Positions 25,214 to 53,383 of a stretch of DNA of 64,000 nucleotides are shown one piece after another. A model generated the notes under the pieces. It was not told the origin of the DNA. It saw only the letters and a list, made by a program, of their open reading frames with translations, and did no database searches. The position numbers and the translations under genes are program-made. This DNA comes from Solirubrobacteraceae bacterium (GTDB taxonomy: Bacteria > Actinomycetota > Thermoleophilia > Solirubrobacterales > Solirubrobacteraceae): contig DATARO010000080.1 of assembly GCA_036264095.1 (NCBI GenBank), forward strand, positions 14,853-78,852. The letters run 5' to 3'. The first letter of the stretch is position 1; the number at the start of each line of letters is the position of its first letter.

Positions 25214-25244
25214 TGATCCAGATCGGCGGTCGCCGTCGTAGAAG
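25214..25244 (+). promoter_or_regulatory. ECF (SigK/ECF19-like) promoter
   Basis: TGATCC-N17-CGTAGAAG upstream of the ferritin-like/tat operon. Confidence 0.7.
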
Positions 25245-25291
25245 CGCACCAAACCACACCGGCCGGTTCCGCTTCCTTCGGCCCTCCAGAG

Positions 25292-25993
25292 GTGAACATG
25301 ACCCAGCACGCGACACAGCAGGAATCTGAGCACCCGCCGCCCGGAATCGTGCAGCGCCTCGTCGAAGACGACGTGGACCGCAAGCGCTTCCTGAAGGCGC
25401 TCGGCGGCGCCGGCGCAGCCGGCTTTGGAGCATTCGCGCTCGCCGCCTGCGGAAGCGCCAGCAAGAGCAGCACCGCGTCCACCGGCGCGGCGACGGGCGC
25501 CTCGCAGGCCAGCGCCTCCCGCTCGAGCGACATCGGGATCCTCAACTACGCGCTGACGCTCGAGTACCTCGAGACCCAGTTCTACGAGAAGGTCAACGCG
25601 GCCGGCCTGTTCAGCGGGAAGGTGGGGAGCCTCATCAAGGAGTTCGGCGCGCAGGAGCAGACGCACGTCGAAGCGCTCAAAGGGGCGGTCGCGAAGCTCG
25701 GCGGGACGCCGGCGATGAAGCCGGAAGGCAGGTTCCCGATCAAGAGTGCGACGCAGGTCGCAGAGCTCGCCTACACGGTCGAGAACCTCGGCGCCGCGGC
25801 CTACCTGGGGCAGGCCGCGAAGATCCAGAGTCCCGAAGTGCTCGCGGCCGCACTCGCGATCCACTCCGTCGAGGCGCGCCACGCGGCGACGCTCGGCACG
25901 CTCGTCAAGAAGTCCCTGACCCCCGACGGCGCGTTCGCGAAACCGGCGGACATGTCCACGGTCCGCGCCGCGGTCAAGCCATTTCTGGCGTGA
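25292..25993 (+). CDS. Ferritin-like domain lipoprotein with Tat-like signal
   Basis: DRKRFLK, lipobox LAAC, LNYALTLEYLE...EQTH...VEARHAA. Confidence 0.85.
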   Translation: MNMTQHATQQESEHPPPGIVQRLVEDDVDRKRFLKALGGAGAAGFGAFALAACGSASKSSTASTGAATGASQASASRSSDIGILNYALTLEYLETQFYEKVNAAGLFSGKVGSLIKEFGAQEQTHVEALKGAVAKLGGTPAMKPEGRFPIKSATQVAELAYTVENLGAAAYLGQAAKIQSPEVLAAALAIHSVEARHAATLGTLVKKSLTPDGAFAKPADMSTVRAAVKPFLA

Positions 25994-26022
25994 GCCACCA
26001 GCGAAGAAAGGACTGCATCGAC

Positions 26023-26658
26023 ATGACGACGACGAACAACACGGAGGCCGGCGACCTCGGCGCGGTCGAGGTGAGCGGGATCACTCGCTCGAGCTTCATC
26101 CTGCGCGGGGCGCTCGCGGCAGGAGCACTGTATGGCGCCGGTGCGGTGACGCCGCTCGTAACGGCGGCGCTGGCCGGGAGCGCAGGCGGCGACGTCGAAA
26201 TCCTGAACTTCGCGCTGACGCTCGAGTACCTCGAGTCGGACTTCTACAACGTCAAGGGCCGGACGGTCGGTCTCAGGGGGCAGGCAGCGAGCTACGCCCG
26301 CATGTTCGGCGAGCAGGAGGCGTCGCACGTGAACGCGCTGGAGACCGTCGTCAAGCAACTGGGCGGCACCCCTGCGGCGAGACCGAAGTTCGTGTTCCCT
26401 GCGACCGACGAACGCTCGTTCCTGGCGCTGGCCTCGGTCCTCGAGAACACCGGCGTCGGCGCCTACAACGGCGCCGCCCCCTCGATCAAGAGCAAGGAAG
26501 TGCTCGAAGCCGCCGGCGGCATCGTGCAGGTCGAGGCGCGCCACGCGGCGGCGATCAACCTGCTGATCGAAGCATCCCCGACGCCCGACCAGGGCTTCGA
26601 CCGGCCCCTGGCCAGGAGCGAAGTGCTCGCCAAGGCCGGCCCGCTGATCAAGAAGTAG
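26023..26658 (+). CDS. Ferritin-like domain protein, paralog of the preceding gene
   Basis: TRSSFIL, LNFALTLEYLE...EASH...VEARHAA; SD AAAGGA. Confidence 0.85.
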   Translation: MTTTNNTEAGDLGAVEVSGITRSSFILRGALAAGALYGAGAVTPLVTAALAGSAGGDVEILNFALTLEYLESDFYNVKGRTVGLRGQAASYARMFGEQEASHVNALETVVKQLGGTPAARPKFVFPATDERSFLALASVLENTGVGAYNGAAPSIKSKEVLEAAGGIVQVEARHAAAINLLIEASPTPDQGFDRPLARSEVLAKAGPLIKK

Positions 26659-26687
26659 ACGTCGACCATCTACCAAAGGAGAAACAC

Positions 26688-26900
26688 ATGGGCCTCGACA
26701 ACCCGATCCATATCGCCTTCCTGCTGGTCGTCCTGCTGCTGGTGTTCGGCGCGAAGCGGCTGCCGGAGATGGGCCGCTCGCTCGGCAGCGGCATGCGCGG
26801 CTTCAAGGACGCGATCGGCGGCCAGAACCCGGTAGAGGTCACGCCGCTCGCGCCGGTCGCCGGCCCGCAGGTCGAGAACCGCGAGACCAGCGCCGCCTGA
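26688..26900 (+). CDS. tatA: Twin-arginine translocase TatA
   Basis: TM plus FGAKRLPEMGRSLGSGMRGFK; SD AAAGGAG. Confidence 0.93.
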   Translation: MGLDNPIHIAFLLVVLLLVFGAKRLPEMGRSLGSGMRGFKDAIGGQNPVEVTPLAPVAGPQVENRETSAA

Positions 26901-26918
26901 GCGCGGGCGCGGAGCGAG

Positions 26919-27866
26919 ATGGCGGCAGCGACCGCACGCATAGGTCACCAGGAGCGCGCCAGCGTCGTCGAGCATCTCGACGAGCTGCGCGCGCGTCTGA
27001 TCGTCTCGCTCGTCGCAGTCGCGATCGCGTTCGGGTTCTGCATGTGGCAGAACCACGCGCTGCTGAAGCTGGTCAACGCTCCGCTGGCGCAGCAGACGCG
27101 CAAGCAGGTCGAGCGGGGCCACGGGACCCTCGGCGCCACGTTCACGGTGCAGCAGGGCACTCGTTCTGTTGCGGTGCAGCTCCGCACCGTCGTCGCCGCG
27201 CTCGAGCGTCCCGGCAGCGGCGCGAGCCCCGCTGTGCGAGCCGCGCTCGCCGGCGTCGCCCCGGCGCTCGACCGCGACGTGACGCGCCTGGCGGCGGCGC
27301 CGGAAGGGGACAAGCCGGTCACGCTCGGAATCGGCGAGCCGTTCACGACGACGATCGGGATCGCATTCCTCTTCGCCCTGGTCCTCTCCCTGCCGGTCGT
27401 CCTGTACGAGCTCTACGCCTTTCTGATCCCGGCGTTCGCGCCCGAGCAGCAGCGAATCGCGCGACCGCTGCTCGCTGCGATCCCGTTCCTGTTCGCGACT
27501 GGGGTCGTGTTCGGGTACTTCGTGGTGCTGCCCGCTGCGGTGCGCTTCTTCCAGAACTTCAACAGCGACCAGTTCAACGTGCTCGTCCAGGCGAGCCAGT
27601 ACTACCACTTCGCCGCGGTCACGCTGCTGGCGATGGGGCTCGTCTTCCAGGTGCCCGTGGCGATCCTCGCGGCGACCCGCTCGGGCGTCGTCACCCCGCA
27701 ACAGCTCGGCCGCAACCGCCGCTACGCCCTGCTCGGGTGCGCCGGTGTCGCGGCGCTGCTGCCGGGCGATGCGATCACGCTGCTGCTGGAGACGGCGCCG
27801 CTCTACCTCCTGTTCGAGGCGAGCGTGCTGCTTGCACGCATCTTCGCGCGGCGCGAAGCCGCATGA
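26919..27866 (+). CDS. tatC: Twin-arginine translocase TatC (with loop insertion)
   Basis: VEHLDELRARL, EPF, YELYAFLIPA, FQVP. Confidence 0.92.
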   Translation: MAAATARIGHQERASVVEHLDELRARLIVSLVAVAIAFGFCMWQNHALLKLVNAPLAQQTRKQVERGHGTLGATFTVQQGTRSVAVQLRTVVAALERPGSGASPAVRAALAGVAPALDRDVTRLAAAPEGDKPVTLGIGEPFTTTIGIAFLFALVLSLPVVLYELYAFLIPAFAPEQQRIARPLLAAIPFLFATGVVFGYFVVLPAAVRFFQNFNSDQFNVLVQASQYYHFAAVTLLAMGLVFQVPVAILAATRSGVVTPQQLGRNRRYALLGCAGVAALLPGDAITLLLETAPLYLLFEASVLLARIFARREAA

Positions 27867-27893
27867 TCCACGCGCCGGCCGGCGCCGTAGAAG
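27864..27893 (+). promoter_or_regulatory. ECF autoregulatory promoter of the sigma gene
   Basis: TGATCC-N16-CGTAGAAG, 8 nt from CGTA to GTG 27898. Confidence 0.7.
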
Positions 27894-27897
27894 GGTC

Positions 27898-28509
27898 GTG
27901 AGACGGGGCAGGCGATCGCATTCCGAACCACCCGAGCGGCTCGACCGGCTCGCGGACGAGGAGCTCATGCCGCTCGTCGCGGGTGCCGACGCGAGCGCCT
28001 TCGCAGTCGTGCTCGAGCGGCACGGCGACGCGGCCTTCTCACTCGCGTACCGCATGTGCGGGACGCGCGCGCTCGCCGAGGACGTGACCCAGGAGGCGTT
28101 CCTGACCGCCTGGCGCAAGGCTGGCCGCTACGAGGCTGCGCGCGGGAGCCTGCGCACCTGGATCCTTACGATCGTGCACAACCGCGCCGTCGACATGCTG
28201 CGGGGCAGTGCGCGCCACACCTCGAAGCTCGCCGGCTCCGAGGACGGCAGCGAGTACCTCGAGGTCGCCTCGCCGGAGCGCACCGACGCCGAGGCGATCG
28301 GGAACGTCGCGGCGGACGCGGTCCGCGACGGCTTGGACATGCTCCCGGAGACACAGCGCCAGACGATCGAACTCGCCTACTACGGAGGCTTCACGCAGAG
28401 CGAGATCGCCGCGATGCTCGAGCAGCCGCTCGGCACGATCAAGGGGCGCATGCGGATCGGCCTGCACAAGCTGCGCGACCACTGCCAGGGCTGGGAGGCG
28501 GCGGCGTGA
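27898..28509 (+). CDS. ECF sigma factor, SigK-like
   Basis: LAEDVTQEAFLTAWRKA...WILTIVHNRAVD; LAYYGGFTQSEIA...PLGTIKGRMRIGL. Confidence 0.92.
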   Translation: MRRGRRSHSEPPERLDRLADEELMPLVAGADASAFAVVLERHGDAAFSLAYRMCGTRALAEDVTQEAFLTAWRKAGRYEAARGSLRTWILTIVHNRAVDMLRGSARHTSKLAGSEDGSEYLEVASPERTDAEAIGNVAADAVRDGLDMLPETQRQTIELAYYGGFTQSEIAAMLEQPLGTIKGRMRIGLHKLRDHCQGWEAAA

Positions 28510-29207
28510 GCCTTCCCCTGTCCAGCCGCTGCCCGCGCATCGAGGATGCGGCCGCCTACGTTCTCGGCGCGCTCGACGACCCCGACGCGTTCCGCGAGCA
28601 CGCGCGGACGTGCGCGACGTGCGGCGAGGAGATCGTGCGGCTGGCTTCGCTGCCCGCGGCGCTGGCGGCGGCGCCTTTGTCCGTGCGCGCGCCGCAGGCC
28701 ATGCGGCAGCGGATCCTCGACCGAGTGACCGCGGAGGCCGAAGTGCTGAACGCCTCGGGGCCGCAGGCCGACCGGCCCCCCCGCGCGCGCGTTCCGCTCG
28801 CGCGGCGCTGGAGGTTCTCCGGCGCGGCGGCCGCGCTCGCGCTGGCGGCCGGACTCGTGATCGCCCTCGCGGGGGGCGGCGGCTCTCCCCGCACGACCTA
28901 CGCGACGGCCTCGGGAGCCGCCACCGGTGCGCGCGCGATGCTGCGGCAGTACGGCGGCCGCGCCGAACTCTCGGTCAGCCACATGCCCCAGGCGCCGTTG
29001 GGCAAGGTCTACGAGGTGTGGCTCAAACGACCGGGCGGCGCCCCGCAGCCCACGGATGCCCTGTTCAGCGTCACCAATGACGGCCGCGGCACCGTGAACG
29101 TCCCGAGCGGCCTGCGGCACGTCGCCGAAGTGATGGTGACGAGCGAGCCGATCGGCGGCAGCGAGCATCCGACGAGCGCGCCGCTGCTCACGTTTCGCCT
29201 GACCTGA
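28506..29207 (+). CDS. Anti-sigma factor, RskA-like, with zinc-binding HxxxCxxC
   Basis: HARTCATC, TM helix, GKVYEVWL, VTSEPIGGSEHPT. Confidence 0.88.
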   Translation: MSLPLSSRCPRIEDAAAYVLGALDDPDAFREHARTCATCGEEIVRLASLPAALAAAPLSVRAPQAMRQRILDRVTAEAEVLNASGPQADRPPRARVPLARRWRFSGAAAALALAAGLVIALAGGGGSPRTTYATASGAATGARAMLRQYGGRAELSVSHMPQAPLGKVYEVWLKRPGGAPQPTDALFSVTNDGRGTVNVPSGLRHVAEVMVTSEPIGGSEHPTSAPLLTFRLT

Positions 29208-29292
29208 CCAGCCTCGCGACGCGGCGAGCCGGCCGGTTGATCGCGAGATTGCAACGCTTGACACAAAGATCGGCTCCTCTGACCATGCGGTC

Positions 29293-29862
29293 ATGGGGGA
29301 GACGCGATCGATGGACGTGCAGACGGAGCTGTCGCTGCTCGAGGCCTCGATGGCCGGTGGGGAGGTCACGTGGGTGCCGGTCCAGCGGACACTCGCGACC
29401 GTCCTCTTCACGGACATCGTCGACTCCACCCGGCACGCCGTCTCGCTCGGCGACACCGCGTGGCGGGAGGTCCTCGACCGCCACGACACGATCTCCAGGG
29501 GGGCGGTGGCGCACTGGGGAGGGCGCGTCATCAAGGGGACCGGCGACGGGATGCTGGCCCGGTTCGACGCGCCCGTGGGCGCGCTGCGCTGCGCGAAGGC
29601 TCTGAGGGTGGCTCTCGAGCACGCAGGAATCGAGATCCGGGCCGGCATCCATACCGGCGAAGTGGAGCTGCGCGGCGACGACATCGCCGGGATCGGCGTC
29701 CACATCGCTGCCCGCATCACCGCGCTCGCATCCGCCGGCGAGCTGCTCGCCTCGCGCACCGTCAAGGACCTCGTCGCAGGCTCCGAGCACCGCTTCACCA
29801 GCCGCGGGATCCACGGTCTCCGTGGCGTACCGGAGCGCTGGGAGCTCCACGCCGTCAGCTGA
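29293..29862 (+). CDS. Class III adenylate/guanylate cyclase, catalytic domain only (LipJ-like)
   Basis: TVLFTDIVDST, IKGTGDG, RAGIHTGE, DIAGIGVHIAAR; TTGACA-N17-GACCAT upstream. Confidence 0.88.
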   Translation: MGETRSMDVQTELSLLEASMAGGEVTWVPVQRTLATVLFTDIVDSTRHAVSLGDTAWREVLDRHDTISRGAVAHWGGRVIKGTGDGMLARFDAPVGALRCAKALRVALEHAGIEIRAGIHTGEVELRGDDIAGIGVHIAARITALASAGELLASRTVKDLVAGSEHRFTSRGIHGLRGVPERWELHAVS

Positions 29863-29967
29863 GCGCCACGGCGCTCAGGCACCTCCCAGCATCGTCCCAC
29901 GGGCGGCACGGGCAGCGGCGCGACCCTGGTTCCGTGGTTCCAGGTTCCGATCCGAAGGAGGTCCCAG

Positions 29968-31721: not shown

Positions 31722-31727
31722 GCCGGG

Positions 31728-32102: not shown

Positions 32103-32124
32103 GTTCGCGCGGGAGCATCCAAAC

Positions 32125-32805
32125 ATGCGCTTGCTGGTCGTCGACGACGACCCGGCCGTACGGGATGCGCTCGCGCTCGTGCTGGGCCTGGACGGCTTCG
32201 AGGTATCGCTCGCCGCCGACGGCCGCGAGGCGATCCGCGCGCTCGACAGCCAGCGCCCGGACGCGATCGTGCTCGACGTGCTGATGCCGGACCTGGACGG
32301 CCTCGAGGTGTGCCGGCGCATCCGGGCCACGGGAGATCGCATTCCGGTGTTGATGCTCACGGCGCGCGCCGAGGTGCGCGACCGGGTCGCGGGCCTCGAG
32401 GTGGGCGCCGACGACTATCTCGTGAAGCCCTTCGCCCGCGAGGAGCTGGTCGCGCGGCTCCGCGCGCTCCTCCGCCGCACGGGGTGGCAGGGCGACGAGC
32501 CGGCGCTGCGCTTCGAAGATCTCGAGCTCGACCCGCTCGCGCACGAGGCGCGGCGCGGCGACCGCCTGCTCGACCTCACCCGCACCGAGTTCCTGCTGCT
32601 GGAACTGCTGATGTCGCACCCGCGCCAGGTGCTCCCACGCTCGACGATCTTCGACCGGGTATGGGGCTACGACTTCGGTCCCTCCTCGAACTCGCTCGAG
32701 GTCTACATCGGCTACCTGCGCCGCAAGACCGAGGCCGGCGGCGAGCCGCGTCTGCTCCACACCGTTCGCGGCGTCGGCTACGTGCTCAGATCGGTGCGGC
32801 GATGA
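32125..32805 (+). CDS. OmpR-family response regulator (MprA-like)
   Basis: [40 protein letters not shown]. Confidence 0.95.
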
Positions 32806-40453: not shown

Positions 40454-41743
40454 GTGGGATTGCAACCGCGCAACGACGCGCATGACGCGCGCACGCTCGC
40501 GAGCGCCGATGAAGCGGCCGACGCGGCGCTGCGCGAGCTGCCGGACGCGCTGATCGTCGCGTTCGACAACGAGCTGCGCTTCATCCTGACGGCCGGCCAG
40601 CCGATCGAACGGCTCGGCCGCACCAGCGCCTTTCAGCCGGGCGCGCCGGTCGCCGCCGCCTTCACGCCGCAGCTGTGGGAGGTGATCGGCGGGCTGTTCG
40701 AGTCTGCGCTCGAAGGCGAGACACGTTCTCGTGAGATCTGGACGACCGACGAGCGCTGCCTGACCGTCGACATCGGGCCGCTGCGCCTGAACGACCAGGG
40801 CCGCGTCGAGGAGGGAGCGGACATCGTCGGTGGCATGGCGGTCGTGCTCGACAGCACCGCGCGCCGGACGGCCGACGTGATCGCGAGCAGCGGCGACGGC
40901 TTCGAGCAGATCTTCGAGCGAGCACCCGTGGGCACCGGCCTGCTGGACCGCGACGGCCGCTGGCTGCTCGTCAACCGCGCGCTCTGCGAGATCACCGGCT
41001 ACACGTCCGAGGAGCTGATCGGCAAGCGCTTCGACGGGATCATCCACCCCGAGGACGCTTACAACGACAGCGCTCGCCGCGAACAGCTGCTCGCCGGCGA
41101 CGTCGACGCCTACCGCGTCGAGAAGCGGTACTTCGACGCCTCCGGGGAGATCGTCGCCGCGCTGCTGTCGATGTCGCTCGTGCGCGATCGCGACGGCGCG
41201 CCGCTGCACTACATCGCCCAGCTGCAGGACGTCTCCGAGCGCCGGGCGTTCGAGGAGGAGCTGCGTGCGCTGGGCGACCACGACCCGCTCACCGGCCTTC
41301 GCAACCGCAGGCTCTTCCTGCACGACCTCTACCTGCAGGTCGCGCGCTCGCGCCGCTACGGCGAGGTCGCCGGGCTGGTCGTCATCGACATCGACGGCAT
41401 GAAGGAGCTGAACCAGACCTACGGGTCCGATGCGGGCGATGTCGTGCTGCAGTCGGTCGCGCGCGCCCTGACACGCCGGCTTCGGCAGACCGACCTCGTG
41501 GCAAGGGTGGGCGGCGACGAGTTCGGGATCCTGCTGCCGCACATCGACCAGGAGGGACTGGCGGTCGTCGCCGAGGGCCTCGCACGCGTGATTCCCACGT
41601 GTGGCGTCGACGTCGGCTCCAGCGTCGTCCATCCATCGGCCGCCTTCGGCTACACGCTCGTCGACGCGAGCACCGTCAGCGCGCAGGTGGCGCTCAGCGC
41701 AGCCGCCGAGGGGCTGGCGCCGCAGCTGCCGCCGCGCGACTGA
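40454..41743 (+). CDS. PAS-PAS-GGDEF diguanylate cyclase
   Basis: DPLTGLRNRR, DIDGMK, RQTD I-site, intact GGDEF; start position uncertain. Confidence 0.9.
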   Translation: MGLQPRNDAHDARTLASADEAADAALRELPDALIVAFDNELRFILTAGQPIERLGRTSAFQPGAPVAAAFTPQLWEVIGGLFESALEGETRSREIWTTDERCLTVDIGPLRLNDQGRVEEGADIVGGMAVVLDSTARRTADVIASSGDGFEQIFERAPVGTGLLDRDGRWLLVNRALCEITGYTSEELIGKRFDGIIHPEDAYNDSARREQLLAGDVDAYRVEKRYFDASGEIVAALLSMSLVRDRDGAPLHYIAQLQDVSERRAFEEELRALGDHDPLTGLRNRRLFLHDLYLQVARSRRYGEVAGLVVIDIDGMKELNQTYGSDAGDVVLQSVARALTRRLRQTDLVARVGGDEFGILLPHIDQEGLAVVAEGLARVIPTCGVDVGSSVVHPSAAFGYTLVDASTVSAQVALSAAAEGLAPQLPPRD

Positions 41744-41801
41744 GCCGATCTCCCGGCATCGCAGCCCCGGGGCCCTCCGGTACGGCCAATACGCTGGATC
41801 C

Positions 41802-43340
41802 ATGAAGGAGGGGGAGCGCCTGGCGGTGATCGATCTCGGATCCAACTCGTTCCGCCTCGTCGTGTTCATGGCGGGGGCAGCGGGGTCGTGGAGGCGTACC
41901 GACGAGATCTATGAGCCCGTGCGGATCGGCCAGGGCATGGCCGAGACCGGGGAGCTCGGCGCCGAGCCGATCGAGCGCGCGCTCGCGACGCTCGACGTCT
42001 TCAGCCACTTCTGCCGTGCGAGCGGGTTGGGACCCCGCGAGGTCGATGCGGTGGCGACGAGCGCGATCCGCGACGCACGCAACGCCGACGCGTTCCTGTC
42101 GCGCGCCCGCGCGCTGTCGGGGCTGCCGATCCGCGTGCTCAGCCGAGAGGAGGAGGCGCGTTACGGCTATCTCGCGGCGGACAACTCGACGACGCTGTCG
42201 GACGGCTTCGTCCTCGACCTCGGCGGCGGGTCGATGCAGCTCGTGCGGGTGCAGGAGCGGGACGCGCGCGAGAGCGGCTCGTGGCGGCTCGGCACGGTGC
42301 GCATGAGCGAGCGCTTCCTGCCTCCCAACGGCCCGGCCAAGCGCAAGCAGCTCCAGGAGCTGCGCGAGCACGTCACCGACGAGCTCGGCGACGCCGATTG
42401 GCTCGCGGCGGCGACCCGGCGCGGGCCCGGCCGGCTCGTAGGCATAGGCGGCACGGTGCGCAACCTGGCGGCGGCCGCGCAGCGCGCGGCGGGGCTGCCC
42501 TCGAACGGCGTGCAGGGCATGGTGATCGGCGCCGACCGCCTCGACGAGCTGATCGAGCGGCTCGCTGCGCTCCCGGCAGCCGAGCGCGCGAACGTTCCCG
42601 GCGTGAAGCCCGCGCGCGCCGACCTGATCCTCGCCGGCGCCGTCGTGGTCGCGGGCGTCCTGCGCGCCGGCGGCTTCGATGGGCTCGAGACGACCGAGGC
42701 CGGGCTGCGCGAGGGCGTGTTCTTCGAGCGGCTGCTCGAGGGCCGCGAGCCGCCGCTGTTCGCAGACGTGCGGCGGGCGAGCGTGCTCAACATGGCGGCC
42801 CAGTACCGCGTCGACGCCGACCACACCAACCACGTCGCCCTGCTCGCGCTGGGCATGTTCGACGAGCTCGCCGCACTCGGCCTGCACGACGGTGACGGGC
42901 GCGAGCGCGAGCTGCTGTGGGCCGCCTGCATGCTGCACGACATCGGCATGTCGATCGACTACGACGACCACCACAAGCACTCCCGCTACCTGATCCTCAA
43001 CGGCGGGCTCCCGGGGTTCGAGCCGGTTGAGACCGCGATCATCGCGCAGGCGGCGCGCTACCACCGCAAGGGCATGCCGACCCCCGGTCCGCTCGCGAGC
43101 CTGTTCGGCGAGGGCGACGCCGAGCGCCTGGACCGCTGCGCGGTTCTGCTGCGGCTCGCCGAGGACCTCGAGCGCTCGCGCGACCAGCTCGTGCGCAGCA
43201 CCAGCATCGCTCTGCAGAACGGGGAGGTGCAGCTGCGGCTGCTGGCCGAGGGCGAGTCAGCGCTGCCGCGCTGGGCGGCGGGGCGAGAGCGTCAGCTCTT
43301 CGCGCGGGCGTTCGGCCGGGACCTGCTCGTCACCGCTTAG
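41802..43340 (+). CDS. ppx: Ppx/GppA exopolyphosphatase with HD domain
   Basis: IDLGSNSFRL, EEARYG, DLGGGS, GLREG, LHDIG. Confidence 0.92.
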   Translation: MKEGERLAVIDLGSNSFRLVVFMAGAAGSWRRTDEIYEPVRIGQGMAETGELGAEPIERALATLDVFSHFCRASGLGPREVDAVATSAIRDARNADAFLSRARALSGLPIRVLSREEEARYGYLAADNSTTLSDGFVLDLGGGSMQLVRVQERDARESGSWRLGTVRMSERFLPPNGPAKRKQLQELREHVTDELGDADWLAAATRRGPGRLVGIGGTVRNLAAAAQRAAGLPSNGVQGMVIGADRLDELIERLAALPAAERANVPGVKPARADLILAGAVVVAGVLRAGGFDGLETTEAGLREGVFFERLLEGREPPLFADVRRASVLNMAAQYRVDADHTNHVALLALGMFDELAALGLHDGDGRERELLWAACMLHDIGMSIDYDDHHKHSRYLILNGGLPGFEPVETAIIAQAARYHRKGMPTPGPLASLFGEGDAERLDRCAVLLRLAEDLERSRDQLVRSTSIALQNGEVQLRLLAEGESALPRWAAGRERQLFARAFGRDLLVTA

Positions 43341-43505
43341 ATGATTGATTCCACGACCCTGCACCGCCGGTGGCACGCTTGGCCTTCGCACGCCGTTGTC
43401 CTCGGCCTCGCCCTTACCACCAGTAAGGGCTTCGGTCTGCGTCCTAGGCCTGCTCGACCACCCGCACCACCGGAACAACGGCACACGACCGCGAAATCAA
43501 TCATC
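43340..43505. mobile_element. MITE-like non-coding element, 166 bp, flanked by TA
   Basis: Perfect 11-bp TIR GATGATTGATT / AATCAATCATC (14 of 16 if extended); TA on both sides; internal hairpins; no transposase. Confidence 0.7.
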
Positions 43506-45679
43506 TAGCGGCGCAGGGCGCGCGCGTCGCCCTTGCAGTCGAACAGCGTCAGCGCGTCGAGCACGTAGCGGAGCGGGCTGTGCCACGTGCTGAGCGACAG
43601 CTCCTTGCACGCGCGCAGCACCGCGGCGGTCGCCTTGTTGCCGCCGCGCGTCGAGTAGTCGCCGCCCAGCAGCACGTAGCGCGCTTCGTGGCGTTCGACC
43701 ATCTTCGCGACCCCCGTCCCGTCGAGCGCGGGATCGCTGCCGCTGTAGCCGCCGAGCGCCGCGGCATCGACCCCCATCAGGATGAACGGCGAGGCCTGCG
43801 TGGAGGAGACGGTGAAGAGCGGGAAGCGCTTCGTCGCGCCGTGGGTCGTGATGTAGGCGATCAGCGCGCGGTCGACCCGCAGCTCGGGCCCCGCGATCCC
43901 GACGCCGCCGGTCCCCTCGGCGAATTTCGGGCCGGCCGCCGGGAACGTCCCCTCGACCGGGCCGAGCCACGTCGTGGTCGCATAGGCGGTTGGGACGATC
44001 ATGAAGAGCGCGAACATCAGCACGACGGCAGGCCGCGCCAGCGAGCGCGAGAGCGCGAAGCCGAGCAGGGCGAGCGCGCCGACGACGAGGAACACGGGCA
44101 CGAGCCACAGCAGGTAGCGCTCGCGGTGGAGCAGCACGGTCTGCGCCGCGATGCTGCCCGCGACCGACAGTCCCGCGAGCGCGACGGCCGCCAGCCAGCG
44201 CCCGTCCTCGCGCAGCCGGACGAGGCCCAGCGCGCCCACCCCGGCCATCGCACCCGTCGCGGGCGCGAGCGCGGAGGCGTAGTAGGGGTGGACGATGCCC
44301 TTGGACCCGCTCAGCACGATGACCTCGACGAGGAACCAGCCCCCCATCACGAGCAGGAACGGCATCAGCGCGCCGCGCTCGGGCGGGGGCGCGGGCGCAG
44401 CTCGCGCAGGTCGCAGGCGACGCACGAGGCGCTCGAGCGGCCCAGCCCCGGCCTGCGGCCGGGGCTCCTCGCGGCCGTCGATCCCGGGCAAGTCGTCGGG
44501 GCGCCGCCTGCCGCGCCACTCGCGCGCGGCGAGCAGCGCGAGCGCGATCGCCCCGAACAGCGCGAGCGGGATCTGCCAGCCGTCCTGGTCGCCGAGGCCT
44601 TTGCCCCACAGCCGCACGGGGCTCGGTTTGCCTCCGAACGGGAACGGGTTGCGGTAGTGGCCGTTCCTCAGGAACGTCGAGCTGTTCGGTCCTTTGGTCG
44701 GGGCGTGCGCCGCGCCGACCGTCGTGCCCACGACGGCCGGGGCGGCGTGGTGGGGGCTGTGGTGGTAGACCGGTCGCGCGCCGGGCAGCGTGAGAACCGT
44801 GTCGGGCCCGCCGAGCTGTCCTTCGACGCGCCCGAAGCCGTTGTATTCGAACGTCAGGCCGAGCTGCGTGTTGTTGGTCGAGCTGCCCACGAACGGGCGC
44901 TTGGACGCCGGCGTGGCTTCGACGTAGGCGATCCAGGCGCCGGAGACGATCAGCATCGCGATGCCTCCCGCGAGCAGGCCGAGCGCGCGCGTGCGCCACG
45001 ACACCGGGGCGCACAGCAGATAGGCAGCCGCGATGCCGGGCACGGCGAGGTAGGCCGCGAGCGTCTTCGTGTTGAACGCGAGGCCGATGAAGACACCGCT
45101 GGCGACGATCCAGCGCACGCGGCCGGTCTCGGCGGCGCGCAGCCCGGCGCCGCACGCTGCGAGCATCAGCAGGATCAGGAGCGCATCGACGCCGTTGTCG
45201 CGCGAGACGGCGACGAACGACGGGAAGACGGCGAGCGCGAACGCCGAGGCGAAGGCCGCGGCGGCGCCGAGCCGGCGGGCGACGATCACGTACAGGAGCG
45301 CCACCGTCAGGACGCCGATGATCGCCTCGGGGAGCAGCACCGCCAGCGGCGTGAAGCCGAAGATCTTCGCGCTGGCCGCCTGCACCCACAGCGCGAGCGG
45401 CGGCTTGTCGACGGAGATCAGCCCGCCGGGGTCGAACGAGACGAAGACGAAGTTGTGCCACGAGCGGAGCATCGAGCGCACGGCGGCCGAATAGAAGATG
45501 TTCGACCAGCCGTTCTGGGAGAGGCGGTGCACGTTCAGCACCGCTGACAGCGCGACGACGAGCGGCAGGCCCGCGTGGCGAGCGAGGGCGAGCGATGCGG
45601 GCAGGCGCCGGCCGCCGCCGGCGTCGGCTTCGCGCGCGAGCGGGATCTCGTGGCTGGCGGTGGTCGGGAGGCTGCTCAT
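43505..45679 (-). CDS. Glycosyltransferase family 39 (ArnT/YkcB-like) membrane protein
   Basis: NIFYSAAVRSM...DKPPLALW, SRDNGVD, AFNTK; many TM helices. Confidence 0.85.
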   Translation of the reverse strand: MSSLPTTASHEIPLAREADAGGGRRLPASLALARHAGLPLVVALSAVLNVHRLSQNGWSNIFYSAAVRSMLRSWHNFVFVSFDPGGLISVDKPPLALWVQAASAKIFGFTPLAVLLPEAIIGVLTVALLYVIVARRLGAAAAFASAFALAVFPSFVAVSRDNGVDALLILLMLAACGAGLRAAETGRVRWIVASGVFIGLAFNTKTLAAYLAVPGIAAAYLLCAPVSWRTRALGLLAGGIAMLIVSGAWIAYVEATPASKRPFVGSSTNNTQLGLTFEYNGFGRVEGQLGGPDTVLTLPGARPVYHHSPHHAAPAVVGTTVGAAHAPTKGPNSSTFLRNGHYRNPFPFGGKPSPVRLWGKGLGDQDGWQIPLALFGAIALALLAAREWRGRRRPDDLPGIDGREEPRPQAGAGPLERLVRRLRPARAAPAPPPERGALMPFLLVMGGWFLVEVIVLSGSKGIVHPYYASALAPATGAMAGVGALGLVRLREDGRWLAAVALAGLSVAGSIAAQTVLLHRERYLLWLVPVFLVVGALALLGFALSRSLARPAVVLMFALFMIVPTAYATTTWLGPVEGTFPAAGPKFAEGTGGVGIAGPELRVDRALIAYITTHGATKRFPLFTVSSTQASPFILMGVDAAALGGYSGSDPALDGTGVAKMVERHEARYVLLGGDYSTRGGNKATAAVLRACKELSLSTWHSPLRYVLDALTLFDCKGDARALRR

Positions 45680-46805: not shown

Positions 46806-46824
46806 GATCGGCGAGAATAGCCGC

Positions 46825-48849: not shown

Positions 48850-48859
48850 GCGCCGGTCG

Positions 48860-50017
48860 CTACAGGCCCATCGAGCGTCCGATGATCTCCTTCATGATCT
48901 CGTTCGCCCCGCCGTAGATACGCGTGACGCGGGCGTCGGCCCACGAGCGCGCGATCGGGTACTCGGTCATGTAGCCGTAGCCGCCGAAAAGCTGCAGGCA
49001 GCGGTCGGTGACGCGGCCCTGCAGGTCGGTGCACCACCACTTGGCCTTGGCGGCGTCCTCGGGGGACAGGGACTCGTCGTCGAGAGCCTGCGCGCAGCTG
49101 TCGACGAACACCCGCGCGATGTCGACTTCCGAGCGCAGCTCGGCGAGCACGAAGCGGCTGTTCTGAAAGGAGCCGAGCGACTGGCCGAATGCCTGGCGCT
49201 CGCCGACGTAGTCGAGCGTCCACGACAGCGCGGCTTCTGACGCCGCGACCGCGGCCGCGGCGATCGAGAGGCGCTCCTGCGGAAGGTTCGAGACGAGGTA
49301 GATGAAGCCCTCGCCCTCGCTGCCGAGCAGGTTCGCGGCAGGCACGTGGACGCCGTCGAAGGACAGCTCGGCGGTGTCCTGGGCGTGCTGGCCGATCTTC
49401 TCGAGGTTGCGCCCGCGCTCGAAGCCCTGCATCCCGCGCTCGACGATCATCAGGCTGATCCCGCGATGGCGCTCCTTCGGATCGGTCTTCGCTGCGAGGA
49501 TCACGAGGTCCGCGTTGATGCCGTTGGTGATGAACGTCTTCGAGCCGTCGACCACGTAGTGGCCGTTCTCGCGGATCGCGCGCGTGGTCATCGCGGCGAG
49601 GTCGGAGCCGATCCCGGGCTCGGTCATCGCCAGCGCGGTGATCAGCTCGCCGCTGACGATCCCCGGCAGCCAGCGCTCGCGCTGCTCGGGGGTGCAGTAG
49701 CGCAGGAAGTAGGGGAGGCAGATGTCGTTGTGGAGTGTGATCCCGAGACCGAACGACCCGACGCCCGCACGCTGGCACTCTTCGCTGATCACGAGGTTCA
49801 GGCGGAAATCCTTGACGCCCGCGCCCCCGTACTGCTCGGGAACCTCCATCGCGAGGAAGCCGCCGGCGCCCGCGCGCGCGTACAGCTCGCGCGGCATGAT
49901 CCCGGCTCGCTCCCACTCGCCGTAGCGGCCCTCCTCGCCCACGACCTCGCGTTCGAGGAACGTGCGGAAGCTCGCGCGGAAGTCTTCGTGGAGGTCGTCG
50001 AAGAGCGTCCGTCGCAC
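48860..50017 (-). CDS. Acyl-CoA dehydrogenase (long-chain type)
   Basis: AMTEPGIGSDL, KTFITNG, PQERL, FGGYGY, IYGGANEIM; -10 TAGGGT 7 nt before GTG 50017. Confidence 0.93.
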   Translation of the reverse strand: MRRTLFDDLHEDFRASFRTFLEREVVGEEGRYGEWERAGIMPRELYARAGAGGFLAMEVPEQYGGAGVKDFRLNLVISEECQRAGVGSFGLGITLHNDICLPYFLRYCTPEQRERWLPGIVSGELITALAMTEPGIGSDLAAMTTRAIRENGHYVVDGSKTFITNGINADLVILAAKTDPKERHRGISLMIVERGMQGFERGRNLEKIGQHAQDTAELSFDGVHVPAANLLGSEGEGFIYLVSNLPQERLSIAAAAVAASEAALSWTLDYVGERQAFGQSLGSFQNSRFVLAELRSEVDIARVFVDSCAQALDDESLSPEDAAKAKWWCTDLQGRVTDRCLQLFGGYGYMTEYPIARSWADARVTRIYGGANEIMKEIIGRSMGL

Positions 50018-50027
50018 GCGGCGCACC

Positions 50028-51311
50028 CTACAGCGGAGTGAGCGAGCCGCGGTAGCGCGGCTTGGCGAGCAGCAGCTGCACGTCGCGGATGCGGCGCTCG
50101 CGGAAGCCGCCCTCGCACCAGCTCAGATACAGCTCCCAGAGGCGGCGGAAGCGCTCGTCGTAGCCGAGCGCGGCGGCGCGGTCGGCGGCCGCCGCGAAGC
50201 GTTCGCGCCAGATGCGCAGGGTGGTCGCGTAGTGCTCGGTGATGTCCTCGAGCTGGACCTGGCGCAGGTCGCCGGCGCGGCGCAGCGTCGAAGCGATGAC
50301 CTCGAGCGAGGGCAGGCAGCCGCCGGGGAAGATATGGGTGTTGATGAAGCTGCGCCCGGCCTTCTCGACCTCGTACGCGCTGTCCTCGATCACGATCGCC
50401 TGCAGCAGCATCGCACCGTTGGGTGCGAGCAGCTCGGCACAGCGGCGGAAGTAGGTGGGGAAGTCGCGCCAGCCGACGGCCTCGATCATCTCGATCGAGA
50501 CGAGCTTGTCATAGGGGCCGCGGCGATCGAGCTCGTCGCGGTCACGGTAGTCGCGCAGCAGGACCTCGACCCGGTCCTCGAGCCCCGCCGCGCGCACGCG
50601 GGCGGTGGCGAACTCGAACTGCTCGCGCGAGATCGTCGTCGTCGTGACTCGGCAGCCGTGGCGCGCGGCGGCGTACACGGCGAAGCCGCCCCAGCCCGTG
50701 CCGATCTCGAGCACGTGGTGCTCGGGTCCGAGCTCGAGCTTGTCGCAGACGCGCGCGAGCTTCGCCAGCGACGCCTCGTGCAGGCTCGCGCCGGGGCGGT
50801 CGAAGACCGCGCAGCTGTACATCATCGTCGGGTCGAGGAACAGCGCGAACAGCTCGTTGCCGAGGTCATAGTGCGCCGCGATCTGCCGGCGCGCGCGCCG
50901 GGGCGTGTTGCGTGCGATCGCGCGCAGCCACCGCTGCCACGGGATCAGCGCGGGCGAGAGGGCACGGCGCAAGGAGTCGAGGCGGTGCACGTTGCGCGCC
51001 GCGAGGCGGGTCAGCGCGACGAGATCCTCGCAGTCCCACAGGCCGTCGACGTAGGACTCGCACAGCCCTACGCTGCCGCGCAGCAGATCGCGATAGAAGC
51101 GCGGCGCCGCCACGCGCAGGACCGCACGCGGGGCCTGCTCCCCGCGGCGGTCGCCGAACACCAGAGTGCGATCCGGCTCGACGATCACGAGCTCGCCGCC
51201 GCGCGTGCGCGAGAGCAGCGCCAGTGCGATCCGCCGCGCCGCCCGGTCGAGCAGGTGCGGGCGCTCGGCGCGGGCCGCGCGCGGGCGCTCGGCGACCTGG
51301 CGCGCGCTCAC
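50028..51311 (-). CDS. Cyclopropane-fatty-acid synthase-like SAM methyltransferase (UfaM/UfaA1-like)
   Basis: HYDLGN, MYSCA, LEIGTGWG, SIEMIEAVG, IFPGG. Confidence 0.93.
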   Translation of the reverse strand: MSARQVAERPRAARAERPHLLDRAARRIALALLSRTRGGELVIVEPDRTLVFGDRRGEQAPRAVLRVAAPRFYRDLLRGSVGLCESYVDGLWDCEDLVALTRLAARNVHRLDSLRRALSPALIPWQRWLRAIARNTPRRARRQIAAHYDLGNELFALFLDPTMMYSCAVFDRPGASLHEASLAKLARVCDKLELGPEHHVLEIGTGWGGFAVYAAARHGCRVTTTTISREQFEFATARVRAAGLEDRVEVLLRDYRDRDELDRRGPYDKLVSIEMIEAVGWRDFPTYFRRCAELLAPNGAMLLQAIVIEDSAYEVEKAGRSFINTHIFPGGCLPSLEVIASTLRRAGDLRQVQLEDITEHYATTLRIWRERFAAAADRAAALGYDERFRRLWELYLSWCEGGFRERRIRDVQLLLAKPRYRGSLTPL

Positions 51312-52075
51312 CGCGATCCCGCCGGATGCGGGTGGTAGCTCGCGCCGCGGGCGCGCAGGCGCGCGGCGCCGGCGTAGATGTGCGCGAGCATGCGCATCGT
51401 CAACAGGGGGTAGCGGGCGAGCGCGCGGCGGAGCTCGGCGGCCGTGATCTCGCGGCGGCGAAGCGCGAGTGTGGCGTCGAAGGCGTGCTCGCCGTCGGCA
51501 TGCAGGGACTCGATGTGGAGCGCGAGGCGTGAGCCCGGTTCGCTCACCCGCAAGTCGTAGGTGTGGTCCATCCCCATCAGCGGCGAGACGTGCAGCTGCT
51601 TGGCGAGCCTGCCGCGCAGCACACGTGTGCTGCCGTGGTCGTGCAGCTGCGCCGGGCCGAGCACGTAGGCGTGCCGCTCGCCCCACGGCGTGTTCGTGAC
51701 CTCCGCGACGGCTGCCGCCAGCGCTCCCCCGTCACGCTCGAAGCAGTAGTAGAAGGTCACCGGGTTGAAGCAGTGGCCGAAGCAGCGCATGTGCGTGAGG
51801 ACGCGGACCGGACCGTCGAGGCGCGCGCCCGTGCGCTCGAGCACCACCCGGCGCACCTCCTCCTCGAGCGGGCGCGCGGGGTCGCCGAGGTAGTCGGCGC
51901 GGCGGAACCAGGCGAGCGCCGGGCGGCGCGAGGAGAACAGGCAGCTGCAGTCGAAGACGTGGTCGAGCTCGCCGAGGTCGAGGTAGGCCATGAACAGCGG
52001 GTAGCGCATCTCGCTCGCGACCTGGACGCTGCGGCGGTGGCGGACGACGCCCTCATACAGGCAGCTCTGCATCAC
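51308..52075 (-). CDS. DUF1365 protein (UfaO-like)
   Basis: LYEGVVRHRR, FNPVTFYYC, EVTNTPWGERH, LHVSPL. Confidence 0.9.
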   Translation of the reverse strand: MMQSCLYEGVVRHRRSVQVASEMRYPLFMAYLDLGELDHVFDCSCLFSSRRPALAWFRRADYLGDPARPLEEEVRRVVLERTGARLDGPVRVLTHMRCFGHCFNPVTFYYCFERDGGALAAAVAEVTNTPWGERHAYVLGPAQLHDHGSTRVLRGRLAKQLHVSPLMGMDHTYDLRVSEPGSRLALHIESLHADGEHAFDATLALRRREITAAELRRALARYPLLTMRMLAHIYAGAARLRARGASYHPHPAGSR

Positions 52076-53316
52076 AGGCCGACCCCGAACGGCGCGCAGG
52101 CGCGCAGGGCGCTGTCAACGCCGTCCTCGTGGAAGCCCCAGCCCCAGTAGGCGCCGGCGAAGTGGGTGCGGTGCTCGAGGCCGCTGATCGAGGAATGCCG
52201 GGCCTGGGCGGCGACGCCGGCCGGGGTGTAGACGGGGTGCGCGTACTCGATCCGCCGGATGACGTGGCTCGGGTCGATCGCCTCGGTCCGGTTCAGCGTG
52301 ACACAGAAATGGCGGTCGGCGACGATCCGTTGGAGGTGGTTCATGTAGTAGGTGACGGTGGACAGGGGCTTCGGCTCGGCGAGCAGGTGGAAGTTCCAGG
52401 CGCTGCGGGCCCAGCGGCGGCGCGGGAGCAGGCTCGAGTCGGTGTGCAGGACCGCTTCGTTGCGCTGGTAGGGGATCGCGCCGAGGAGTTCGCGCTCGCG
52501 GGGGCTCGGGTCGCCGAGCATCGCCAGCGCCTGGTCGGAGTGGGTGGCGAGGACGACCTGGTCGAAGCGCTCGGGCTCGCAGCCGTCCGCGCGCAGCGCG
52601 ACGTGGTCGGAGTGCCGCTCGATGCGGCGCACCGGGCAGCGCAGGCGGATGCGCCCGGCGAACGGGGCCGTCAGGGCCTCGACGTAGCGCGCCGATCCGC
52701 CCGAGACGGTCGACCAGCGCGGGCGGCCGCGGAAGCCGAGCATGCCGTGGTTGGCGAAGAACTCGGCCAGGAAGCGGACCGGGAAGCTTCCCATCTGGCG
52801 CGGGTCTGCCGACCACACGGCGCTGACCTGGGGCACGATCATGCGCTCGACGAAGGCGCGTGAGAAGCGATGGCGCTCGAGGAACTCCGCGAGCGACTCG
52901 CCGCCGCGCTCGCCGCCGAGCACGCCGGCGAGCTTCGAGTTGAAGCGGAGGAGGTCGAGCACCATGCGCTGGAAGCGCGGGCTGACGGCGTTGCGCGGCT
53001 GGCAGTAGAGCCCGCGCGGGGTGCCGGCGTACTCGAAGTCCTCCTCCTCGCCCTTCACCGAGAAGCTCATGTGTGTCGGCTGCGTCGCCACGCCGAGGCG
53101 TGCCAGCAGGCGGGTGAAGTTGGGGTAGTTGCGGTCGTTCATGACGATGAAGCCCGTGTCGAGGTGATACGTGGCGTGCTCGGTGTCGACCCGAACCGTG
53201 TTCGTGTGGCCCCCGGGGTAGGAGGCCGCCTCGAACATCACGATCTCGTGCTCGCGGTGCAGCAGATGCGCCGCGACGAGTCCGGAAACGCCGGCTCCCA
53301 CGATCGCTATCCGCAT
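52072..53316 (-). CDS. FAD-dependent amine-oxidase-family protein (UfaD-like)
   Basis: IVGAGVSG, GGH, DTGFIV, AGAYWGWGFHEDG. Confidence 0.92.
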   Translation of the reverse strand: MRIAIVGAGVSGLVAAHLLHREHEIVMFEAASYPGGHTNTVRVDTEHATYHLDTGFIVMNDRNYPNFTRLLARLGVATQPTHMSFSVKGEEEDFEYAGTPRGLYCQPRNAVSPRFQRMVLDLLRFNSKLAGVLGGERGGESLAEFLERHRFSRAFVERMIVPQVSAVWSADPRQMGSFPVRFLAEFFANHGMLGFRGRPRWSTVSGGSARYVEALTAPFAGRIRLRCPVRRIERHSDHVALRADGCEPERFDQVVLATHSDQALAMLGDPSPRERELLGAIPYQRNEAVLHTDSSLLPRRRWARSAWNFHLLAEPKPLSTVTYYMNHLQRIVADRHFCVTLNRTEAIDPSHVIRRIEYAHPVYTPAGVAAQARHSSISGLEHRTHFAGAYWGWGFHEDGVDSALRACAPFGVGL

Positions 53317-53353
53317 CTGCCGTACCCCCTCGGTGCCCAGGTCATGTGACCGT

Positions 53354-53383
53354 CTCTACGTCGCGGTGCCGCCGCGCGGATCA
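53354..53383 (-). promoter_or_regulatory. Third ECF (SigK-like) promoter
   Basis: Minus strand TGATCC-N17-CGTAGAG upstream of ATG 53316. Confidence 0.7.

Follow-up and report, generated by a model that had tools for sequence, protein, structure and literature searches.

A probable three-promoter regulon of a SigK/RskA-type sigma factor in a Solirubrobacteraceae bacterium, comprising ferritin-like lipoprotein, Tat translocase and fatty-acid modification genes

A 64,000-nucleotide stretch of DNA from a Solirubrobacteraceae bacterium (GenBank assembly GCA_036264095.1, contig DATARO010000080.1, positions 14,853 to 78,852 of the forward strand; hereafter 'the window') encodes an extracytoplasmic function (ECF) sigma factor which resembles SigK of Mycobacterium tuberculosis, and, directly downstream, a membrane anti-sigma factor with an RskA_C domain. 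We propose that the two proteins form a SigK/RskA-type ECF system with a local regulon of three promoters, here named P1, P2 and P3, and we consider this proposal likely to be correct. The promoters would serve two ferritin-like proteins together with the genes of a twin-arginine translocation (Tat) system, the sigma factor itself and an operon for fatty-acid modification. Four observations carry the proposal: the motif shared by the three sites, its positions, the families of the genes which follow it, and the conservation of these motif–gene pairs across about 160 related loci. A preliminary description of the window had already postulated an ECF sigma factor with an autoregulatory site and two further target operons sharing one motif. 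The match to a known consensus, the similarity to SigK and RskA_C and the comparison of the related loci bear this out. To the regulon described there, we add tatA-tatC and an acyl-CoA dehydrogenase gene as predicted members.

Promoter-like sites in the window

Three sites share the −35 element TGATCC and a −10 element with CGTA.

P1, 25214-25244, plus strand: −35 TGATCC at 25214-25219, 17-nucleotide spacer, −10 CGTAGAAG at 25237-25244
P2 (predicted autoregulatory site), 27864-27893, plus strand: −35 TGATCC at 27864-27869, 16-nucleotide spacer, −10 CGTAGAAG at 27886-27893
P3, 53354-53383, minus strand: −35 TGATCC at 53383-53378, 17-nucleotide spacer, −10 CGTAGAG at 53360-53354

The preliminary description had placed TGATCC-N16/17 sites at 25214 and 27864 on the plus strand and at 53354-53383 on the minus strand, and all three are present there. 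With the spacer limited to 16-17 nucleotides, the spacings of the conserved sites, they are the only perfect matches in the 64-kb window. A wider search with TGATCC-N15-19-CGTA gives four matches against 0.24 expected, a number which none of 100 dinucleotide-preserving shuffles reaches. Overall, the chance expectation for the motif count in the window, whose G+C content is 72%, amounts to about 0.1-0.24.

The positions of the sites are those of promoters. All three are oriented in the sense direction, 8-57 nucleotides 5′ of an operon start, and they precede start codons backed by third-position GC: the ATG of fer1 at 25298, the GTG of the sigma gene at 27898 and the ATG of the amine-oxidase gene at 53316. 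P1 sits in the intergenic region between fer1 and a divergent topoisomerase IB gene, with 57 nucleotides from the end of its CGTA to the fer1 ATG. P2 straddles the end of tatC, the TGA of its −35 element being the tatC stop codon, and its −10 element ends 8 nucleotides 5′ of the sigma GTG. At P3, 40 nucleotides separate the end of the CGTA from the amine-oxidase ATG.

The motif itself is well documented. TGATCC/CGTA is the promoter consensus of RpoE/ChrR-type ECF sigma factors, validated by chromatin immunoprecipitation sequencing (ChIP-seq) and by transcription start sites (PMC5507510, PMC4336711). For the ECF sigma factor of Pseudomonas syringae, ChIP-seq and quantitative reverse-transcription PCR support the consensus, which precedes the sigma gene and a phrB...cfa locus with homologs of the amine oxidase and of RSP1090 (PMC5507510). 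In Shewanella, start sites were mapped downstream of TGATCC/CGTA(A/T)T (PMC4336711). Furthermore, SigK-binding sites are reported to be conserved across Actinobacteria (PMC7509140).

The genes under the three sites are listed below; reading frames were chosen by third-position GC, start-codon context and matches to Pfam and NCBIfam.

fer1, 25298-25993, plus strand: lipoprotein of family PF13668 (Ferritin_2), Pfam 1e-37
fer2, 25990-26658, plus strand: second PF13668 paralog, Pfam 9e-40; its first 4 nucleotides overlap with the end of fer1
tatA, 26688-26900, plus strand: 70 residues, Pfam TatA_B_E 3e-16, TIGR01411 above cutoff
tatC, 26919-27866, plus strand: 315 residues, Pfam TatC 7.5e-52, TIGR00945 above cutoff
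Sigma gene, 27898-28509, plus strand: SigK-like ECF sigma factor of 203 residues, Sigma70_r2 and r4
Anti-sigma gene, 28506-29207, plus strand: Pfam RskA_C 1.4e-14; its first 4 nucleotides overlap with the end of the sigma gene
Amine-oxidase gene, 52072-53316, minus strand: flavin adenine dinucleotide (FAD) amine-oxidase-family protein, Pfam Amino_oxidase 1.9e-25; counterpart of Rv0449c / RSP1091 (UfaD)
DUF1365 gene, 51308-52075, minus strand: Pfam DUF1365 7e-72; counterpart of Rv0448c / RSP1090 (UfaO); 4-nucleotide overlap with both neighbours
Methyltransferase gene, 50028-51311, minus strand: CMAS-family S-adenosylmethionine-dependent fatty-acyl methyltransferase, Pfam CMAS 9e-83; counterpart of ufaA1 / cfaS / UfaM
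Acyl-CoA dehydrogenase gene, 48860-50026, minus strand: assigned by Pfam; fourth gene of the operon, after a gap of 1 nucleotide from the methyltransferase stop

Beyond the three sites, the wider search returned a fourth match (49897-49924, plus strand, 18-nucleotide spacer). It was rejected as a chance occurrence: it runs antisense to the acyl-CoA dehydrogenase gene in which it lies, and the orthologs lack it. Matches with one mismatch number seven in the window (at 8600, 10510, 20595, 34994, 49456, 54288 and 61286) versus about three hits in total in the shuffles. Three of them, 8600, 20595 and 54288, were checked against the gene map, and the first two fall inside genes. The third (54288-54315, plus strand, TGATCC-N16-CGTC) lies inside the 3′ end of a gene for an RpiR-family regulator, 155 nucleotides 5′ of a gene for a CarboxypepD_reg-domain protein (54443-56011); it is probably no real site, since CGTC is not found among the variants at conserved sites. 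Neither sigma-70-type promoters nor intrinsic terminators rise above background at the sigma locus or at the lipid operon.

Conservation of the motif–gene pairs

A profile of 19 sigma orthologs yielded 80 loci from species-representative genomes, 1.36 Mb in total. All of these are metagenome-assembled genomes (MAGs) labelled Solirubrobacterales, Thermoleophilia or, more broadly, Actinomycetes/Actinomycetota. Together with a second set of 80 metagenomic loci which encode relatives of the amine oxidase, about 160 loci enter the comparison. The strict motif (16-17-nucleotide spacer) occurs 90 times in the 1.36 Mb against about 2 occurrences expected from the base composition of the window, an enrichment of about 45-fold. 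Its placement is equally selective: 54 motifs lie 20-350 nucleotides 5′ of the sigma gene, 13 before a ferritin-like gene and 11 before tatA. Most of the other 12 are sigma sites nearer the start codon, or precede open reading frames with Tat-like signals.

Counted by locus, a strict motif is present within 160 nucleotides upstream of the sigma gene in 59 of the 80, and the sigma gene of the window, coupled to its cognate anti-sigma gene by the 4-nucleotide overlap, shares this arrangement with a motif which ends 8 nucleotides before its start. The first in-frame start codon follows CGTA after 10-12 nucleotides in 45 of 61 loci (median 11). This distance points to leaderless, autoregulated sigma mRNAs, and the sigma mRNA of the window, too, is probably leaderless or nearly so.

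The genes for the ferritin-like proteins (two or three paralogs) and tatA-tatC adjoin sigma-rskA in 13 of the 20 closest loci, usually in divergent orientation and sometimes co-directionally as in the window. Before the first of the ferritin-like genes, the motif is perfect in 13 of 18 loci and carries one mismatch in four more (17/18). Before tatA, where it reads TGATCC-N16-CG[TA]A, it is perfect in 11 of 26 loci, has one mismatch in nine (typically CGAA) and is lacking in six. A tatA-proximal site was looked for in the window and, as in these six relatives, not found; the tatAC genes of the window are thus presumably transcribed from P1.

The third target is conserved as well. In the amine-oxidase loci the order amine oxidase, DUF1365, methyltransferase is kept, and the acyl-CoA dehydrogenase gene follows at about 80% identity in most close loci with long enough contigs. 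The 220 nucleotides upstream of the amine-oxidase gene were tested in 75 loci:

Amine-oxidase orthologs of at least 70% identity, 25 loci: 18 perfect motifs, 5 with one mismatch (CGAA/CGCA)
More distant amine-oxidase orthologs, 50 loci: 6 perfect motifs, 23 with one mismatch
Equal-sized intragenic controls, 75 loci: no perfect motif, 1 with one mismatch

Moreover, some relatives (loci L058, L064, L131, L133 and L148-152) have the lipid operon downstream of sigma-rskA, immediately behind tatA or tatC and under the same promoter as tatA. Motif and synteny together thus link four modules: sigma/anti-sigma, ferritin-like proteins, TatAC and the lipid operon.

The sigma factor and its anti-sigma factor

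The sigma factor matches only two Pfam domains, Sigma70_r2 (residues 40-106) and Sigma70_r4 (146-193), and scores above the cutoff of TIGR02937 (sigma70-ECF). Possessing regions 2 and 4 only, in about 200 residues, it belongs to the ECF sigma factors (group 4). Its best match in the PDB is M. tuberculosis SigK (4NQW, 1.8e-27), followed by Rhodobacter sphaeroides RpoE (2Q1Z, 4.7e-20), and its best match in NCBIfam is the SigK subfamily NF007228. Two start codons come into question, GTG 27898 for a protein of 203 residues and ATG 27967 for one of 180. The closest homologs, which are 60-80% identical and derive from Solirubrobacterales/Solirubrobacteraceae MAGs, mostly comprise 202-203 residues, which supports the GTG start.

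SigK of M. tuberculosis possesses a redox cysteine pair, C133/C183, which occurs in 94% and 56% of the members of its two groups (ECF18/ECF19; PMC7509140), and a disulfide switch has been described for it (PMC7826278, PMC7509140). In the sigma factor of the window, the residue aligned to Cys133 is a glycine, and the sole C-terminal cysteine (C196) is not invariant among the orthologs.

The anti-sigma factor is composed of an N-terminal ZAS-type domain, one predicted transmembrane helix and an extracytoplasmic RskA_C domain (PF10099, residues 107-226; hydrophobic segment at about 102-125). Its ZAS pattern, C9-x22-H32-x3-C36-x2-C39, in our judgement agrees with the general form H/C-x23-26-H-x3-C-x2-C and predicts a zinc site. 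HxxxCxxC is found in 76 of 77 orthologs and C9 in 80%. If redox state is sensed directly, the ZAS cysteines would be a likelier site than the sigma factor. The C-terminal part consists of the transmembrane helix and RskA_C and contains no cupin, so the architecture is not that of ChrR. A sequence search of the PDB returned no solved relative of the anti-sigma factor.

The earlier label of a SigK/RskA-like pair consequently holds for the RskA_C domain and for the best matches of the sigma factor in the PDB and NCBIfam. It does not extend to the redox cysteine pair, and the score lies below the SigK cutoff.

The lipid operon

The preliminary description had recognised, at 50-53 kb, the three families of Rv0449c-Rv0448c-ufaA1, and Pfam identifies them as Amino_oxidase, DUF1365 and CMAS. 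It had further stated that these genes lie beside sigK-rskA in M. tuberculosis and that sigmaE-ChrR of R. sphaeroides controls their homologs under singlet-oxygen stress. In the literature, homologs of the window genes are controlled by SigK in the former species (PMC7509140) and by sigmaE in the latter (PMC5507510). For Rv0449c, regulation by SigK is recognised (PMC5547695). In R. sphaeroides, RSP1091 (UfaD), RSP1090 (UfaO, DUF1365) and RSP2144 (UfaM) are induced by sigmaE and make a methylated furan fatty acid which scavenges singlet oxygen; in R. palustris, the genes RPA2571-2570-2569-2568 follow the order ufaD-ufaO-ufaM plus a fourth gene (PMC7380195).

The operon of the window contains the same three families in the same order as R. 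palustris ufaD-ufaO-ufaM. Judged by the protein families and their order, the operon probably serves the synthesis of furan or methylated fatty acids. The matches of the methyltransferase to the NCBIfam models of cyclopropane fatty acid (CFA) synthase all stay below cutoff. The enzyme may be a UfaM-type methylase or, alternatively, a cyclopropane synthase.

Ferritin-like proteins and their possible Tat export

Fer1 comprises a Tat-like DRKRFLK signal, an LAAC lipobox, a linker rich in Ser/Thr/Ala and a four-helix bundle. It is 73-80% identical to 18 aligned Solirubrobacterales orthologs and hence more conserved than the sigma factor. Across this alignment of 19 sequences, the DRKRFLK motif, the LAAC lipobox and the ligands E89, E120/H123, E162 and E192/H195 (the set E, ExxH, E, ExxH) are invariant. 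Fer2 is 47% identical to Fer1 over the domain. In an AlphaFold2 model of Fer1, pLDDT reaches 77-88 over most of the domain, while signal and linker are disordered. Foldseek places this model closest to RvY_06210 (RvFeMP-1, 8W9K; E 6.5e-6, TM 0.62), then to Rv2844 and mini-bacterioferritins, and RvY_06210 is also the best PDB match by sequence (8KCE).

RvY_06210 and Deinococcus radiodurans DRB0118 have been described as PF13668 'ferritin-like metabolite phosphatases' tied to desiccation and UV, and plant PCC13-62 belongs to the same family (PMC11616004). The characterised PF13668 members are a phosphatase and a catalase (the nectar catalase NmNec2), dimeric enzymes and not cage-forming iron stores. 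The term 'ferritin-like' of the preliminary description is right at the family level. Compared with the RvFeMP-1 ligands E51, E90, H93, E132, D135 and D162, Fer1 keeps E, ExxH and E; D135 is replaced by Gly, and D162 by Glu followed by His (ExxH). In this respect the metal site of Fer1 comes closer to a classical di-iron or di-manganese centre. Its activity may be removal of peroxide or hydrolysis of damaged metabolites.

The signals of all three paralog classes show a non-canonical twin arginine: RK in Fer1, TR[SA][SA]FILR in Fer2 and TRLGFLKK in Fer3, a paralog which stands beside the sigma gene in many relatives and is absent from the window. The classes share a Tat-like n-region pattern, T/D-R-x-x-F-L/I-K/L. 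Among the 19 Fer1 sequences a single one has RR, and Fer2 of the window carries TRSSFILRG with a single arginine. TatC apparently keeps two short stretches, HLDELR and PEQQR, which, read by eye, we take to be the Glu-containing signal-binding motifs. At 315 residues, TatC is long: the Pfam model, with 208 positions, matches it over residues 18-294, and its residue 134 falls on position 49 of TIGR00945. Both alignments imply about 70-80 inserted residues, which would lie in the first extracytoplasmic loop.

A more specific idea can be put forward tentatively, and we rate it as possible rather than probable. The SigK-like sigma factor might directly induce both the Tat translocase and its cargo, i.e. 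two or three PF13668 dinuclear-metal proteins whose signals lack the second arginine. Such a stress-inducible, substrate-dedicated export module would place these proteins on the cell surface as part of a joint surface/membrane antioxidant/desiccation response alongside furan fatty acids. In the searchable literature we found no report of ECF-sigma regulation of the PF13668 family, nor any paper in which RskA/SigK is connected to ferritin-like or desiccation-related proteins.

Proposed mechanism

In the resting state, the membrane anti-sigma factor, with its cytoplasmic ZAS domain, single transmembrane helix and external RskA_C domain, would keep the sigma factor inactive. Envelope damage of an oxidative, photo-oxidative or desiccation type is the presumed trigger which frees the sigma factor; release may proceed via thiol oxidation of the ZAS site and/or via regulated proteolysis begun at the external domain. 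RNA polymerase with the bound sigma factor would then recognise −35 TGATCC and −10 CGTA, 16-17 nucleotides apart, at P1, P2 and P3.

From P1, fer1-fer2-tatA-tatC would be transcribed, probably with read-through into the sigma gene. P2 would give a leaderless, positively autoregulated transcript of sigma and anti-sigma, and P3 the four-gene operon of amine oxidase, DUF1365 protein, methyltransferase and acyl-CoA dehydrogenase. The Tat translocase, induced at the same time, may carry the two dinuclear-metal PF13668 proteins in the folded state to the cell surface. In parallel, membrane acyl chains would be remodelled by the homologs of UfaD, UfaO and UfaM, which in R. sphaeroides make lipids that scavenge radicals and singlet oxygen. 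In this scheme, that the three sites are transcribed, what kind of signal acts, which reactions the enzymes catalyse and that export depends on Tat are what we infer.

Weighing the proposal and its alternatives

Several findings weigh against the proposed SigK/RskA-type regulon or against single parts of it. First, the sigma factor scores 145 bits against NF007228, whose cutoff is 226, and the missing equivalent of Cys133 means that the redox mechanism of SigK is not transferable to it. Second, the TGATCC...CGTA-type consensus is common to ECF11, ECF18 and ECF19 sigma factors. Third, the ligand set of Fer1 differs from that of RvFeMP-1 at two positions, so that phosphatase activity is not to be assumed, and with no canonical twin arginine in Fer1 and Fer2, Tat export is suggested mainly by the operon link to tatAC. 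Fourth, the link between PF13668 and a sigma factor is lineage-specific and no general property of the family, as shown by Miltoncostaea oceani, a cultured member of another order of the Thermoleophilia. Its 816-kb plasmid NZ_CP064357.1 (locus L161, 570793-585326) carries two adjacent PF13668 genes and a third 4 kb away, near STAS/SpoIIE partner-switching genes, and neither an ECF sigma gene nor a TGATCC...CGTA motif was found near the pair within this locus. Regulation of PF13668 may differ between orders. Lastly, among the public sequencing runs searched, none of the RNA runs contains window sequence; the one run that does is a soil-metagenome DNA run.

The shared consensus leads to the strongest alternative, which we nonetheless judge improbable. 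P1-P3 could be read mainly by another sigma factor, one which belongs to the same promoter class and has its gene at a different place in the genome, e.g. an RpoE/ChrR-type ECF11 paralog, and the adjacent sigma gene would then merely be one target. This idea gains from the many related loci in which a second, distant ECF paralog lies about 1 kb upstream of the sigma gene. However, the motif is fixed directly 5′ of the window-type sigma gene in most loci at a constrained distance from the start, the classic signature of ECF autoregulation. Furthermore, no second ECF sigma factor is detectable in the 64-kb window, and the adjacent paralogs of relatives are just 25-30% identical. These paralogs are a feature of many of the more distant sigma loci (L018-L080), where they stand about 0.5-1 kb upstream of the SigK-like gene.

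Somewhat less probable still is an iron module, in which the Fer pair would store or detoxify iron and the regulon would serve iron homeostasis instead of oxidative or envelope stress. Fer1 and Fer2 do carry the canonical di-iron ligands E, ExxH, E, ExxH, and bacterioferritins and Dps are among the structural neighbours. But both proteins have export signals and a lipobox and share an operon with tatAC, the characterised relatives in the family act as dimeric enzymes, and the lipid operon under the same control serves the response to oxidative stress in other bacteria.

A third alternative, in which the three sites arose by chance or are bound by a conventional transcription factor and are not promoters, is effectively refuted by the comparative data: short motifs can recur in a genome of 72% GC, and the match at 49897 does look like chance, but the shuffles never reach the observed count, orientation, spacing and start distance are promoter-like, the motif is identical to an experimentally mapped −35/−10 pair, and enrichment and position hold over about 160 loci.

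Comparison with known systems

The SigK/RskA-type system proposed here resembles M. tuberculosis SigK-RskA in the closest solved sigma structure, the RskA_C membrane anti-sigma factor encoded directly downstream, the autoregulation (predicted in the window) and the amine oxidase/DUF1365/CMAS operon as a target. The layout differs. In M. tuberculosis, the autoregulation of sigK runs through the Rv0449c promoter (PMC7509140), whereas the lipid operon of the window lies 24 kb away and has its own promoter. In place of the mpt83-sigK-rskA cassette, the window shows tatC, tatA, fer2 and fer1 upstream of the sigma gene, and an adenylate-cyclase-like gene and a carboxylesterase gene downstream (Pfam families); its exported neighbours are thus PF13668 proteins plus TatAC, and none of the neighbours has a Pfam family which an mpt83 homolog would be expected to show. 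The earlier suggestion that ferritin-like proteins are used where mycobacteria use MPT70/83 fits by position and does not reach beyond this positional analogy. Unlike in the mycobacterial pair, glycine occupies the Cys133 position, the anti-sigma factor has a conserved HxxxCxxC, and the sigma factor falls below the NCBIfam SigK cutoff.

With R. sphaeroides sigmaE-ChrR and its homologs (P. syringae PSPTO_1043, Shewanella RpoE2), the window shares an identical TGATCC-N16-CGTA consensus and, under this motif, homologs of the core targets cfaS/ufaM, RSP1091 (amine oxidase) and RSP1090 (DUF1365). SigmaE-type regulons also include extracytoplasmic or peroxide-detoxifying enzymes, such as the periplasmic glutathione peroxidase PgpD in Shewanella and KatG in P. 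syringae. ChrR carries a ZAS-type zinc motif, as does the anti-sigma factor of the window. In contrast to ChrR, a soluble ZAS-cupin protein, the latter is a membrane protein with RskA_C, and its host is a Gram-positive-type actinobacterium. No photolyase gene was seen near the three sites, where homologs of phrB and RSP1087 were not specifically searched for.

The P3 operon parallels the furan pathway UfaD-UfaO-UfaM in its three families, their R. palustris order, a fourth gene and control by an ECF sigma factor of the same promoter class; it departs from the R. palustris furan operon in that its fourth gene encodes an acyl-CoA dehydrogenase. Fer1 belongs to the family of the PF13668 'desiccation-related' proteins (RvFeMP-1, DRB0118, PCC13-62, NmNec2), whose members are secreted or exported and associated with stress. 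Unlike RvFeMP-1, it combines E, ExxH, E, ExxH instead of E, ExxH, ExxD, D, is a bacterial lipoprotein with a Tat-like signal and lacks an IgG-like domain. For the Tat genes, Bacillus subtilis phoD-tatAd-tatCd offers a parallel: there, a Tat translocase is dedicated to and co-expressed with its metallo-enzyme cargo and induced by the two-component system PhoPR. In the window, too, tatA-tatC share one operon with predicted exported cargo, presumably under a stress regulator, here an ECF sigma factor and not PhoPR.

Neighbouring genes

The topoisomerase IB gene (Topoisom_I plus Top1B_N_bact, 24032-25120, minus strand) diverges from fer1 and borders the intergenic region which contains P1. Upstream of it lie genes for a DJ-1/PfpI protein (23319-23981) and a DUF1360 protein (22751-23269). 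On the other side of the sigma locus, a gene for a protein with an adenylate/guanylate-cyclase domain (189 residues, 29293-29862, plus strand) starts 86 nucleotides past the anti-sigma stop, and no terminator is recognisable in this gap. Co-transcription with sigma-rskA is possible; in relatives the gene is not conserved beside rskA, except for one weak match 7 kb away in locus L059. The unrelated genes between and beyond the sites (32125-32805, 40454-43340, 43505-45679 and 56099-56983) are all without the motif. Their functions include an OmpR-type response regulator, a PAS-GGDEF diguanylate cyclase, a Ppx/GppA-HD phosphatase, a PMT_2 glycosyltransferase, an acetyl-CoA-synthetase-like enzyme and PdxS.

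Biological meaning

The switch composed of an ECF sigma factor, a membrane anti-sigma factor and the TGATCC-CGTA motif is already known, as is its link to the lipid operon in Mycobacterium, Rhodobacter, Pseudomonas and Shewanella. The motif defined on about 160 loci is a useful new result: it provides a ready genome-wide search pattern for the full Solirubrobacterales regulon, and simple reporter constructs for finding the signal of SigK-type systems. New as well is, first, that in many relatives the Tat translocase genes themselves carry an ECF promoter motif, for which no report was found in the searchable literature. Second, a regulatory context emerges for PF13668, an enigmatic family which is widespread in soil and for which it is disputed whether its members act biochemically as phosphatases or as catalases. 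In an abundant and almost uncultured order of soil bacteria, PF13668 proteins predicted to be exported appear to be wired to a sigma factor which would also control a lipid pathway protective against singlet oxygen and radicals.

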